Shown one piece after another: positions 3,363-47,346 of a stretch of 64,000 nt of DNA. The DNA is taken from positions 85,581-149,580 of the forward strand of contig NZ_JAYTLQ010000042.1 of NCBI RefSeq assembly GCF_043729335.1, written 5' to 3'. Under the pieces are notes generated by a model. The model was given only the letters and a program-made list of their open reading frames with translations, was not told where the DNA came from and did not search any database. A program made the position numbers and the translations under genes. How positions within the stretch are numbered: the stretch's first letter is position 1; every line of letters starts with the position of its first letter. This DNA is from Crenothrix sp. (GTDB lineage: Bacteria; Pseudomonadota; Gammaproteobacteria; Methylococcales; Methylomonadaceae).

Positions 3363-4130
3363 ATGACCATGACATCGCTTACCCATCGTAGTCTGCGTTT
3401 TATCTGCCTGATATTAATAGCCTGTTCTTTGTCGGCGTGTGTTTACTGGATGCGCGCCTATCAAGTTTATTTGCAGATGAGCGAGTTTGACCGTTATTTT
3501 GATGTCGTGGTTAGCGACGATTTCAGTTTGCACTTCAAAAAGCCAATTATGCTCAGTGAAGATTTTGTATCGTTGTCCAAACTTCATGCCAGCGAAGAAA
3601 CCGCTTTAGCCGATGGCAAAAAATGGCGTTACTGGTTTCGTAAAGTTAACGGCTATAAAAAACCCGTTACGCCCGAAGTGAAATTTTATTCAGACTTAAC
3701 CTTCAACAAACAAAACCAACTCACTGCATGGACATTTTCGTCGTTGTTTTTACAGATAGCACCGCCGAAATTTCTGGAAGCTTCTTTGCGCTCGCTAGGG
3801 GGTGCAGAAATCAACAAAGCCGAGATGCAGTTACAGGGCAATAGCGCTGCAGTAGAAAAAATTGCCGACGATTTGCCTAAAAAAGACACGATAATCGCAA
3901 AATTGGGTAAACCTTTTGAAATTAAACCGGATAAAGGCCAGGAAATTTATACCTATCTGTTTTTGCTGGACACGCCGCATATCGACAAAGGCTATGAAGA
4001 CAGGGCATTAAGTGAAGTTAAGCTATCCTTCGATAAAAAAAGCCACGAACTGGTAAGAATGGCGGGACGGTTTGCAGGGCTTAAAATATCGATTAATTAC
4101 CGCAAGTTTCAGGATGAGAAAGCTAAATAA
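3363..4130 (+). CDS. Hypothetical lipoprotein
   Basis: 255-aa ORF with signal peptide and lipobox-like LSAC. Confidence 0.7.
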   Translation: MTMTSLTHRSLRFICLILIACSLSACVYWMRAYQVYLQMSEFDRYFDVVVSDDFSLHFKKPIMLSEDFVSLSKLHASEETALADGKKWRYWFRKVNGYKKPVTPEVKFYSDLTFNKQNQLTAWTFSSLFLQIAPPKFLEASLRSLGGAEINKAEMQLQGNSAAVEKIADDLPKKDTIIAKLGKPFEIKPDKGQEIYTYLFLLDTPHIDKGYEDRALSEVKLSFDKKSHELVRMAGRFAGLKISINYRKFQDEKAK

Positions 4131-4133
4131 TCC

Positions 4134-4298
4134 GGCTTCCAACTTAAGGCGGGACAGGTGAAGGTGTGCCGTTCGTGGTGAGCCATTCGACTAGCTCATG
4201 AGAGCCTTGTCGAACCATGAGCGGCACACAGCACACCCTTCGACAAGCTCAGGCCGAACGGTGTGCCTTATTGAGTGTCCCGTCTTATGTGTGTAGCC
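4134..4298. mobile_element. MITE family 1, copy A (165 bp), with REP-like palindromic interior
   Basis: Imperfect 23-bp TIRs GGCTTCCAACTTAAGGCGGGACA / TGTCCCGTCTTATGTGTGTAGCC; 8-bp direct repeat AATAATCC at 4126-4133 and 4299-4306. Confidence 0.9.
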
Positions 4299-4319
4299 AA
4301 TAATCCTAAGGAAAATAAA

Positions 4320-4351
4320 ATGCAGAGACGCAAAATCTTGCGTCTCTGCAT
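4320..4351. repeat. REP-like perfect hairpin between convergent genes
   Basis: ATGCAGAGACGCAA-AATC-TTGCGTCTCTGCAT, 14-bp stem. Confidence 0.8.
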
Positions 4352-4364
4352 CGTAAAGCCGAAC

Positions 4365-5471
4365 TTAATTAGTTTGCACAGCCTTGAAAAAACCAATAAT
4401 ATCTTTATTTTTTCCAGGCCATTCCGGATGCATCCCCGTGCCTTCACAGTACCAGGTTTGTACGCCGTTTTTACAGCCACTGTAAGCAACGCAACCTTCA
4501 ACACCCTCTACTGGCGTAGTATGGGGTAAAGGCTTTCCGGCTTTAAGATCTTCGGCTTTTTGTGCCAGCTCTTGCTGATAATAGCTTTCCCAACCGCCAG
4601 CCCCCGATATGGCCTTTCGATCAGTTACCTTATAAGTTTTAGTGTCGCATTTATTGCATTTTGCCCACCATTCAATCGCGTGTTTGCCAAAGTTTGGAAA
4701 TAGCTTATCGCGGCTGCTGTGCATGAGCATAACTGGCGTAGGCTTCACACAGTTACGGTCAGCCAGATCCTCGCCGGTAATACCCACGGCGCTAGGTGCG
4801 ATGGCAGTTGGAATATGCTTGGTACCGTTAAAAAAAGCGATGCCCATAGCAATCGTGCCACCGTCCGAATGACCAGTCATGAATATTCTTTTTTTATCGA
4901 TGCACCATTTTTCTTCAACAACCTTAGGTATGTTAGCCAATTGGACCACCGCTTCAGGTGACAAGGCACGATGATCAGCATAGGCCACAATAAATCCTGC
5001 CGCTGTCGCTTCTTTAGTAAGATAAGTAAAATCTTCCGTTTGGCTCCGATCTTTTCCGGCTGGTGCGTAGACCATCAGTAAAGGATGCGCGATGGTGTCG
5101 TTATAATTAGCTGGCGTTCTAACGGAATAATAAACACCGTCATCGGTTTTTTCATCGTCACTGGCACCCGCGTTACCTGACTTTGATCCCGCCTGACATC
5201 CCGCTGTCGCCACATCATTACTGTAAGTTGCCTCACTTAAAACGATGCCTTCTTTAGCCGCCTCAGTGACATGCTCATCAACGGTATAATATGTCCGGCT
5301 CGCGCCCGTAAACCCAATCATAAACAAGGCTATAGATAATACCACCGCCGACATGACCTCCATTTGTTTGCCACGAAAACGCAACCATTCTGTCTTGAAT
5401 AAACCCACAAAAAAAACAACAAACGAAGCGACAATCAATAATCTGAAAAAATACAGGAATAATGTATTCAT
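4365..5471 (-). CDS. Membrane-anchored alpha/beta-hydrolase, PHB-depolymerase/LpqC-like esterase
   Basis: Two N-terminal hydrophobic segments, GHSDGG nucleophile elbow, C-terminal H in GTGMHPEWP. Confidence 0.75.
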   Translation of the reverse strand: MNTLFLYFFRLLIVASFVVFFVGLFKTEWLRFRGKQMEVMSAVVLSIALFMIGFTGASRTYYTVDEHVTEAAKEGIVLSEATYSNDVATAGCQAGSKSGNAGASDDEKTDDGVYYSVRTPANYNDTIAHPLLMVYAPAGKDRSQTEDFTYLTKEATAAGFIVAYADHRALSPEAVVQLANIPKVVEEKWCIDKKRIFMTGHSDGGTIAMGIAFFNGTKHIPTAIAPSAVGITGEDLADRNCVKPTPVMLMHSSRDKLFPNFGKHAIEWWAKCNKCDTKTYKVTDRKAISGAGGWESYYQQELAQKAEDLKAGKPLPHTTPVEGVEGCVAYSGCKNGVQTWYCEGTGMHPEWPGKNKDIIGFFKAVQTN

Positions 5472-5613
5472 GGGGTTAGCCTTAACGAAAGATACGGGGT
5501 TACGAAAATATCCACTGGAATGCTAACTGATGTTATGCATTGTCCACAAGCACAAAGAACACGAAAACCAAGAGCAACTACTGCCAAGATGGCAAATTCT
5601 GCCTGCATATTTG

Positions 5614-45307: not shown

Positions 45308-45323
45308 ATATTTAGGGGACTTG

Positions 45324-45611
45324 TTACTCAATAACCTTAGGGACGAGATACAACCCAGCGTCAACTTGCGGGGCTATCGATTGAAATTGTTGGTGCTGAT
45401 CGTATTCGGTGACTTCATCTGTCCTTAAGCGCTGTCCCTGTTCCATAGGATGTGCCATAGGCTCTATACCGTCGGTGTTTAAGTCGCTCATTTGCTCCAT
45501 TAAACTTAACATGCCTGATAAATCTTGGGTGTAAGCTTCAATATCAAGCTCATCAATGCCTAGCCGCGCCAAATGCGCAATTTTCTTTACATCACTTGCC
45601 GTTAACGACAT
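45324..45611 (-). CDS. gatC: Asp/Glu-tRNA amidotransferase subunit C
   Basis: [23 protein letters not shown]. Confidence 0.97.
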
Positions 45612-46084
45612 TTTTTTTCCTATCAAGAAACAAAATTTATTGATCAATACAGGTTACTCATCATACAAAACTTAACCGTAGCGACTTATCTGATAAAGTG
45701 TATAAAAACTTCACCTTATTAGCGTGCTTATTGTCAGCTTTTTTGCCTTTTAAAAATTTCCTATCGATAACAATGTGCAATAAAAAACATAACTTGTTAA
45801 TATTCAACACAGTATAAAAAAGGCATGATTTTTGCTTTAATTTAGGATTATCGCTTTACCTAAGAAAGCACATTAAGACTCTGCTTTTACACTCATCTAA
45901 CTACTTATTGAAAGATAATAGTATTTTTTAACACCTACACCGTCTTTTAATAAAAGCACTTTACTTCCAGACAAAGTTTTTACACATATTTGAGCTATAT
46001 GATACTTTATATCTTGCTCAAATACCCGCTTGATTGATAAAGTAACCCTATTTTTCATACCTTAGCTAAAGGATACCGGTAGAA

Positions 46085-47128
46085 ATGTTCAAAAGAATTC
46101 GTGGCTTATTTTCCAACGATTTATCCATCGATTTAGGAACCGCTAACACGTTGATTTATATGCCAGGGCAAGGAATTGTACTCAATGAGCCCTCAGTTGT
46201 TGCCATTAAGGAGGATAGAATTCGAGGTCACAAAACCATTGCTGCTGTAGGTGCTGAAGCCAAACAAATGCTAGGCCGAACTCCTGGCAACATTACGGCA
46301 ATACGCCCCTTAAAAGATGGCGTTATCGCGGACTTCGCAGTGACTGAGCGCATGTTACGTTATTTTATCGATAAAGTGCATGAGAACAAATGGCTGCGTC
46401 CCAGCCCACGCATTCTAATTTGCGTACCGTGTGGATCAACGCAAGTTGAACGCCGCGCTATCCGTGAATCTGCCGCCATGGCGGGTGCGCGTGAAGTCTA
46501 TTTGATTGAAGAGCCTATGTCTGCGGCTATCGGCGCTGGCTTGCCCGTAGATGAAGCCTCTGGTTCTATGGTACTGGACATTGGTGGCGGTACATCAGAA
46601 GTGGCCATTATTTCAATTAATGGCATTGTATATTCATCCTCGGTACGTATTGGCGGTGACCGTTTCGATGAAGCGATTATTAGTTATGTGCGCAGAAACT
46701 ACGGCACGTTAATTGGTGAAGCGACTGCTGAACAAATAAAAATTGAAATTGGTGCGGCTTACCCTGGCAGTGAAGTCAGGGAAATTGAAGTCAGGGGACG
46801 CAATCTGGCTGAAGGTGTACCGCGCAGCTTTACTTTAAACAGTAATGAGATTTTAGAAGCCCTGCAAGAACCGCTTTCCGGCATTGTGGGCGCGGTAAAA
46901 CTGGCTCTGGAACAAACACCGCCCGAACTTGGCTCGGACGTTGCTAGTCGGGGTATTTATTTAACCGGCGGCGGTGCTTTACTCAAAGACATCGACAGAT
47001 TAATATCCGAAGAAACCGGCCTGCCCGTTTATATTGCCGATGATCCTCTGACGTGCGTTGCCAGAGGCGGCGGTATGGTTTTAGAAATGCTGGACAAAAA
47101 AGGCGTTTCGGCATTTTCTTTAGAATAG
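46085..47128 (+). CDS. mreB: Rod shape-determining protein MreB
   Basis: [27 protein letters not shown]. Confidence 0.98.
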
Positions 47129-47135
47129 AAAAAAG

Positions 47136-47259
47136 GGCTACTAACTTAAGACGGGGCAATTTAAAAAAAGCCGTTCGTGATATGAGCTTGTCGAACCATG
47201 AACAACAAACCCTTCGACAAGTTCAGGGCGAGCGAATGTCCCACCTTAATTTGGTAGTC
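47136..47259. mobile_element. MITE family 1, copy D (124 bp), between mreB and mreC
   Basis: TIRs GGCTACTAACTTAAGACGGGGCA / TGTCCCACCTTAATTTGGTAGTC; 8-bp direct repeat GAAAAAAG at 47128-47135 and 47260-47267; shorter version of the A/B interior. Confidence 0.9.
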
Positions 47260-47346
47260 GAAAAAAGTAACTGCACATTCAGATAGCGGCCGAAATGACT
47301 CAATCCGGCCGCTTGGCTTTGTTAACCAAATACGAGATCACCCGCT

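Follow-up and report, generated by a model that had tools for sequence, protein, structure and literature searches.

The four short elements described here (A to D), which lie in a 64,000-nucleotide stretch of Crenothrix DNA (the window, C42:85581-149580 of genome G000), are very probably MITEs (miniature inverted-repeat transposable elements) orphaned from a family of insertion sequences (ISs) that encode a DUF6399 protein, and the hairpin cores between their ends are, with the same good confidence, separate palindromic modules inside the MITE shell. A first-pass annotation of the window, made from the sequence alone, had taken the elements for non-autonomous units that are moved in trans by a DDE enzyme and leave a fixed 8-bp target-site duplication (TSD), and this view is supported by the terminal inverted repeats (TIRs), the TSDs, an empty site in a congener and an IS with the same ends. 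The genome G000, from which the window was taken, is a metagenome-assembled genome (MAG) from a sediment metagenome (3.32 Mb, 63 contigs, 43.7% GC); it was compared with three congeners (G001-G003), a related member of the Methylococcales (G012), a complete relative (G016) and the further relatives G004 and G006.

The elements of the window and their copies in the genome

A 22-bp TIR (GGCTWCNNACTTAAGRCGGGAC) is common to A, B, C and D, whose previously proposed positions were confirmed from the sequence and by a pattern scan. When the window was scanned with GGCTWCNNNNWTAAGRYGGGRC, seven of the eight element ends matched with at most one mismatch (0.02 expected by chance); the eighth, the right TIR of C, carries a 2-nt insertion and escapes the scan. 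The elements and their duplications are arranged as follows:

4134-4298, plus strand: MITE A, 165 bp, 'X-type' subfamily, with TIRs at 4134-4155 and 4277-4298 and a palindromic core at 4169-4261
4126-4133 (left) and 4299-4306 (right), no strand: TSD of A, AATAATCC, a perfect 8-bp repeat
8687-8851, minus strand: MITE B, 165 bp, the A subfamily reversed, with its core at 8724-8816
8679-8686 and 8852-8859, no strand: TSD of B, GATTTTTG, a perfect 8-bp repeat
21420-21566, plus strand: MITE C, 147 bp, GTAGG-type subfamily, with the palindrome GTAGG...CCTAC at 21447-21523
47136-47259, plus strand: MITE D, 124 bp, simple '122-nt' subfamily, with its core at 47171-47234
47128-47135 and 47260-47267, no strand: TSD of D, GAAAAAAG, a perfect 8-bp repeat

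Exact 8-bp duplications flank three of the four elements, as had been claimed, and C lacks one, its flanks reading AAACAAAG and TATTTAAA. The interiors also proved to be as described: the palindrome TTCGACAAG/CTTGTCGAA occupies 93 nt in A and B and, in a shorter version, 64 nt in D, and C holds the GTAGG-type palindrome of 77 nt. B carries the A type in reverse complement, with an identity of 155/165 (94%). According to the 60-aa open reading frame (ORF) lists drawn up around A to D, the elements are touched only by short ORFs that cross an element edge into the flanks.

The family is far larger than the four members first noticed. A genome-wide scan of G000 returned about 140 TIR sites, and 46 complete copies of 90-298 bp were found, of which 19 are flanked by a duplication identical at all eight positions and 11 by one identical at seven, giving 30/46 with at most one mismatch; for a control 8-mer shifted by 20 nt, 0/46 had two mismatches or fewer. 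The case for transposition further hinged on unoccupied orthologous loci carrying the 8-mer once and not twice, and this is what was observed for A in the congener G003, where the orthologous gene end reads ...GCTAAATAATCC followed directly by TAAAAAG, with a single AATAATCC and no element. D and C are absent at the orthologous sites of G001-G003, where divergence blurs the exact empty site, and in metagenome contigs D was present and no empty-site joint was seen. With a length below 500 bp, no coding capacity, TIRs, a TSD of fixed length, an empty site and an autonomous element with the same ends, the elements have the properties of MITEs. A search of Rfam returned no family for any of them.

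Many contigs of G000 end within a repeat of this family, which therefore contributes to the fragmentation of the assembly. True nesting of whole MITEs also occurs, at C22:10703, where a copy of 298 bp has a third MITE inside it, and in G016, where the element at locus L008 lies inside another MITE. At another locus (L145, G001:C33:17400-18900, positions 81-1376), a tandem array holds 6.7 copies of a 193-bp unit with 98% identity, and each unit contains a whole MITE of this shell plus its core, so that here the MITE was amplified head-to-tail.

A DUF6399 insertion sequence with the same ends

The full-length IS with matching ends that was sought as a partner was found in G012 and in the congener G002 as an element of 1.70 kb encoding a DUF6399 protein. 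G012 contains 171 TIR sites, with TIRs standing in inverted pairs about 1.70 kb apart, and six IS copies fetched from it measure 1701-1712 bp, are at least 99.2% identical, begin with the left TIR GGCTACCAACTTAAGACGGGAC, end with the right TIR GGCTACCAATTTAAGACGGGAC and are flanked by perfect 8-bp TSDs in four of the six cases and by a TSD with a single mismatch in one more. Their single frame of about 540 codons ends in ...DVPS, and its TAA stop lies inside the right TIR. DUF6399 matches in G012 number 38, corresponding to at least 38 IS copies. G002 has one intact copy of 1704 bp with an in-frame ORF of 537 aa, and the same IS with flanks as in G002 is also present in a Crenothrix polyspora record; G001 retains only a remnant. 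The IS ends are TIRs of 22-23 bp (GGCTNCCNACTTAAGNCGGGACA) identical to those of the MITEs, and four subterminal bases are likewise common to MITE and IS ends, namely GGGACATCC in the D type and the right TIR of G012 and GGGACACTC in A/B and the right TIR of G002.

One peculiarity of the G012 copies concerns their start. All six (L011-L016) have ATGACTAAAAAAAC, with a run of seven A, at element positions 64-80, and this run shifts the ATG by one base from the frame of the 540-codon ORF; homologues beginning MTKNRTTQ are in frame. The offset could be due to slippage that is programmed or to an error that the assembly makes systematically at homopolymers.

In G000 itself a profile search for PF19936 gave no match, and a tblastn search recovered a dead IS copy at C23:13833-14184, consisting of the left TIR GGCTACCAACTTAAAGTGGGAC and only residues ~299-393 of the transposase. 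This copy is internally deleted and is interrupted (C23:13833-14273 region) by an ISL3 end, GGCTCTTCCCGATTTCGTGGGGTAGCC, at the contig edge; contigs C22 and C48 stop at this ISL3 end too. Since G000 holds only this dead remnant, its MITEs are probably immobile now and represent orphans of a family that was once present in that lineage. An intact IS of G000 hidden in the source metagenome was considered and rejected, as the full-length match found there (100% over 1,771 nt) is part of a Methyloglobulus MAG from the same metagenome; a short piece on a metagenome contig of 1,768 nt pointed to the remnant at C23. Likewise, identical solo TIRs in G016 that might have bounded a full-length IS proved to belong to MITEs.

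The IS protein (P0001 and P0008 were searched) matches Pfam DUF6399 (PF19936) only (9e-64), and no NCBIfam transposase model matches it; our literature search found no paper naming DUF6399. The family comprises 1,888 clusters at 50% identity (E<=1e-3) and at least 580 loci in a collection of one genome per species, from Methylococcales, Cycloclasticus, Zoogloea, Accumulibacter, Mariprofundus, Thiolinea, Desulfobacterales, Cyanobacteria, Chloroflexia and Acidobacteria. The ends GGCTNCCNACTTAAGNCGGGACA are kept across these taxa and many loci show 8-bp duplications, TIR and TSD together being conserved in loci of Methylococcales, Zoogloea, Accumulibacter, Desulfobacterales, Chloroflexia and cyanobacteria. 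For example, an Acaryochloris plasmid carries a 1752-bp copy flanked by TAAATTGG that is annotated only as 'DUF6399 domain-containing protein'.

An alignment of 83 family members (numbering of P0008) shows D147, E170, W181, D202, D222, H225, Y394, R452, E458-G-R-N and a DxFH motif to be invariant. In the AlphaFold (AF2) model, a predicted beta1-beta2-beta3-alpha1-beta4-alpha2 succession occupies residues 140-214, with D147 and D202 at the canonical places and about 230 helical residues before the E, which gives the D, D and E of a DDE enzyme on a predicted beta/alpha core of RNase-H type. By fold, the PDB entries that match best are Hermes, a hAT transposase, and the cores of retroviral integrases. 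Among the 83 members, 22 match rve weakly, five match DDE_Tnp_ISL3 (PF01610) weakly (best 5e-5) and many match helix-turn-helix models of the transposase type; a search of the family profile against PDB chain sequences produced only coiled-coil noise and no transposase match. On the basis of the invariant residues and the predicted fold, we read the DUF6399 protein as a putative DDE transposase of an uncurated family.

In the mechanism proposed here, a full IS of about 1.70 kb would encode one protein of about 540 aa between TIRs of the type GGCTNCCNACTTAAGNCGGGACA, generate 8-bp target duplications and use the TAA of its right TIR as stop codon. The protein would combine a helix-turn-helix at the N terminus with a DDE/RNase-H-like core (D147, D202, E458) and an all-helical insertion of about 230 aa. 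The MITEs would retain the two TIRs and a few subterminal bases and, as the identical ends and the TSDs suggest, would have been moved by this transposase in trans, the IS of G000 having since been reduced to one deleted copy split by an ISL3.

An attribution of the elements to ISL3, which the first-pass annotation had thought compatible with their ends and duplications, was not supported. ISL3 elements have ends that start with GGCT and an 8-bp TSD, as do the MITEs, ISL3 elements are present in G000 and cause contig breaks at C22, C23 and C48, and a few DUF6399 relatives (the 5/83 mentioned above) touch PF01610, all of which could be taken to favor mobilization by a classical ISL3-family transposase. 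However, searches with PF01610 in G000 and six TIR-bearing relatives yielded two ISL3s, a decayed one in G000 (end sequences GGCTCTTCCCGATTTCG... and GGCTCTTCCCGATTTCGTGGGGTAGCC) and an intact one in G016 (end GGCTCTATGTGAAAT), and the ends of both diverge from those of the MITEs beyond GGCT. Moreover, G012 has no ISL3 gene detectable with PF01610 in spite of its 171 TIR sites, and the IS with TIRs identical to the MITEs encodes the DUF6399 protein, which ISL3 models fail to detect even though the IS has the 8-bp TSD and GG(CT) ends of that family. It is therefore very improbable that a classical ISL3 transposase mobilizes these MITEs. A profile-profile link between the two families was also tried and set aside as suggestive only (hhalign E 0.28 against one ISL3 and 0.074 against 14, probability <1%); the alignment places DET, D and DxFH correctly and is not significant. 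The DUF6399 family is at most a distant cousin of ISL3. IS892, at 1.7 kb with a 24-bp TIR and an 8-bp TSD, may resemble the DUF6399 IS.

Palindromic cores inside the shell

Several kinds of core occupy the one shell. Pairs of TTCGACAAG arms, always with a 3-nt mismatch bubble, are found in 35 of the 46 elements and in at least three subfamilies, GTAGG-type hairpins in C and about five others, and CTCTCC-type hairpins in elements such as C9:3030. The claim of an exchangeable cargo stands insofar as one shell holds several palindromic interiors, but exchange by the shell itself is the poorer reading, because the arms are independent of it. Counts of the arm GTTCGNNNTGAGCYTGTCGAA versus the shell TIR were 148/0 in G004, 216/3 in G006, 21/171 in G012 and 517/46 in G001, and since arm counts do not track shell counts across these relatives, the arms do not belong to this shell in particular.

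Moreover, at least four further MITE shells, whose ends differ from these, contain TTCGACAAG-type arms. A second shell of G000, CTAGTACTYAGTCAATCTTA, has 52 TIR sites (e.g. C34:10688-10840, C2:46898-46996 and C29:33605-33724) and shows no TSD beyond its terminal CTAG; its interior holds a TTCGACAAG core, a ACCTACGAGG hairpin or no hairpin at all (99 nt). In G001 a shell ACAGCGTTTTCA... with an 8-bp TSD holds the same arms, and in G004 a shell GGGAACCTCTAAAAATT (L146-L152) has them facing outward and is flanked by the 4-bp duplications TTAA, TCTA and TAAA. The 'cargo' is more aptly seen as a set of independent palindromic repeats that are nested in MITEs and amplified as composites. The proposed modules, that is, pairs of TTCGACAAG-type arms and hairpins of the GTAGG and CTCTCC types, would be copied by the DDE enzyme as a composite once they are inside a shell, and such copying would account for near-identical subfamilies in which each copy has its own TSD.

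Modules may enter shells by transposition of their own, by guided insertion or by recombination, and the sequences around the core bear on this. In three subfamilies a direct repeat X brackets the core, and the loop includes X in reverse complement together with the opening bases of the arm; in A and B the succession of repeat, loop and repeat is GGTGTGCCG ... CGGCACACC ... CGGTGTGCC. No X repeat surrounds the core in the 122-nt subfamily, which includes D. In G016 the shell was found both empty (71 bp, at two loci with their own TSDs, CGTTATTT and GATACAAT) and filled (146-174 bp, at least six loci), the filled shell exceeding the empty one by the core and a direct repeat of GGATTAAC. A third state of 276 bp at L166 (C1:2969480-2969840, TSD TTAAAGTC) has another palindrome of about 150 nt beside a partial core. 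The layout of X, its reverse complement and X could result from loop-matched insertion of the core, from templated synthesis or, for the empty shell of G016, from deletion between repeats.

The reading of A to D as orphans of the DUF6399 IS with separate modules in their interior has to be weighed against several observations. A TSD is missing from C and from roughly a third of the copies, the G000 assembly contains no intact partner IS (although in a MAG such a copy could be lost in binning), and the fold and profile similarities of the DUF6399 protein are weak (Foldseek E 1.3e-3 for the Hermes match, mean pLDDT, i.e. predicted local distance difference test, 70.7). In addition, no duplication flanks the core in most core-bearing subfamilies, and the empty shell of G016 could equally be the product of a deletion between 8-bp direct repeats and not the ancestral form. 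The last two points lead to an alternative in which the interiors were never separate mobile units and each subfamily arose independently by recombination, template switching or capture of abundant genomic hairpins during gap repair, the empty shell of G016 being a deletion product. Hairpins enclosed by 8-bp direct repeats are prone to deletion, and a loop that carries the reverse complement of the flank fits templated synthesis better than simple insertion. However, at least five shells contain the same 21-nt arm, which faces inward as well as outward and also occurs in genomes without this shell, and what a filled shell has beyond an empty one is exactly the core and an 8-bp direct repeat. 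These findings make the alternative unlikely, and we continue to regard the cores as separate modules.

The translated arms (4169-4261, and all cores) contain the peptides SLSNHE, FDKLR.NG and VRPELVEG, which we presume to occur in hypothetical proteins of many Proteobacteria, and the arm may accordingly be far more widespread than the Methylococcales; a literature search found nothing for the core sequence or for these junk-ORF peptides. Across 31 genomes no clear pattern linked the counts of RAYT/Y1 proteins and arms.

A wider reading in two layers can be offered tentatively, and we consider it possible but less probable than its opposite. The DUF6399 proteins might be the transposases of a phylum-spanning, uncurated IS family (~1,900 clusters at 50% identity) that branches off deeply next to ISL3 and has a helical insertion resembling that of hAT enzymes, and the GTTCGNNNTGAGCYTGTCGAA pairs and other arm modules might be self-mobile units that colonize the MITEs of at least five transposase systems and are then spread by the DDE enzyme of the shell, entering by target pairing or template switching as the loop complementary to X might indicate. 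The MITEs themselves are ordinary, and what is less ordinary is the parent IS family and the modular hairpins that recur in unrelated shells. Because the protein is annotated as 'DUF6399, unknown function', IS copies and MITEs go uncounted in mobilome surveys. Loci of the family (at least 580) span Proteobacteria, Cyanobacteria, Chloroflexota and Acidobacteriota. The IS copies and MITEs also disrupt assemblies made from short reads, as in G000. The natural empty shells of 71 bp and filled shells of about 170 bp are ready substrates for the question of whether the core is a hitchhiker or a helper.

Position near genes and relation to known systems

The elements had been proposed to spread to gene ends, and a tendency of this kind, but nothing stronger, was seen. 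According to a crude gene call (ORFs >=100 aa), 43 of the 46 copies are intergenic, nine are no more than 10 nt away from a stop codon, and the neighboring genes are convergent at 12 copies and divergent at 4; this distribution fits AT-rich targets near stops together with purifying selection. In the window, the overlap of a TSD with the upstream stop codon, claimed for A and D, applies in full to A, where the TAA (4128-4130) of ORF 3363-4130 falls within the left TSD; D sits directly after the stop of ORF 46085-47128, and just the last base of that TAG (47126-47128) overlaps its TSD. These positions, along with the stable folds of the four window elements, which all form long hairpins (z -4.9 to -8.5; A, z -7.4), and with the hairpin followed by T7 on one strand of the 122-nt subfamily, would suit elements kept by the host as transcription terminators or as stabilizers of mRNA 3' ends. 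No orientation bias expected of terminators was found, however, as the T-run is correctly oriented in only 7/11 tandem contexts and points the wrong way in D, and A, C and D are absent from the congeners. Retention for such a function is thus quite improbable.

Other repeats were noticed along the way. Just after A, at 4321-4351, lies the palindrome GCAGAGACGCAAAATCTTGCGTCTCTGC, a hairpin of roughly 28 nt that is present at dozens of sites in G002 and G003 and has GTAGAGACG variants elsewhere in G000; it looks like a separate family resembling repetitive extragenic palindromic (REP) sequences. At 16304-16395 there is another MITE with the ends GTATGCGTTCACC/GGCTGAACGGTTAC, the 8-bp TSD ACTAATGT and a hairpin body of the CTCTCC type. 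The 3' end of contig C56 of G000 carries, at the contig end, a CRISPR array with the repeat GTCGCGCCCCGCGTGGGCGCGTGGATTGAAAC.

Among known systems, the elements are most similar to bacterial MITEs such as Correia/NEMIS of Neisseria, RUP of Streptococcus and Nezha of cyanobacteria, which are likewise non-coding sequences of 90-300 bp with TIRs, a fixed TSD, a hairpin body, tens of intergenic copies and a full-length IS with the same ends. They differ from these in that the parent IS is not called a transposase by Pfam, NCBIfam or the PGAP annotation pipeline and in that their bodies are built of modules common to unrelated MITE families. With the ISL3 family the DUF6399 IS shares the 8-bp TSD, the GGCT start, a single ORF and a similar size, and its protein the motif order DET ... 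D ... DxFH ... EGxN; in contrast, ISL3 models miss the DUF6399 protein, whose helical insertion is longer by about 100 residues, the TIR diverges beyond GGCT, and the profile-profile comparison reached E 0.074. The hAT transposases, represented by Hermes (PDB 4D1Q), provide the best fold match, a DDE core split by a large all-alpha insertion, and have the same TSD length of 8 bp, although Foldseek gives an E-value of just 1.3e-3 with a low global TM-score, and there is no match at the sequence level.

The cores resemble REP/REPIN sequences, which are linked to RAYT enzymes of the HUH Y1 type, and BIMEs (bacterial interspersed mosaic elements) in their pairs or arrays of arms of about 21 nt in alternating orientation, in hairpins with a conserved mismatch bubble and, for the interior of C, which starts with GTAGG and ends with CCTAC, in a GTAGG head. 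On the other hand, the TTCGACAAG arm in the cores of A, B and D lacks both a GTAG and a CGTC tag and forms no palindrome by itself, the cores sit inside MITEs of the DDE type, and the search of G000 for Y1_Tnp gave just one weak match (E 3.3e-4). Finally, nested MITEs and ISs that target the centers of REPs or palindromes, such as ISRm22 and IS1397, are also mobile elements inside other repeats, but their topology is the reverse of the one described here, where the palindrome lies inside the TIRs and is not split around them.

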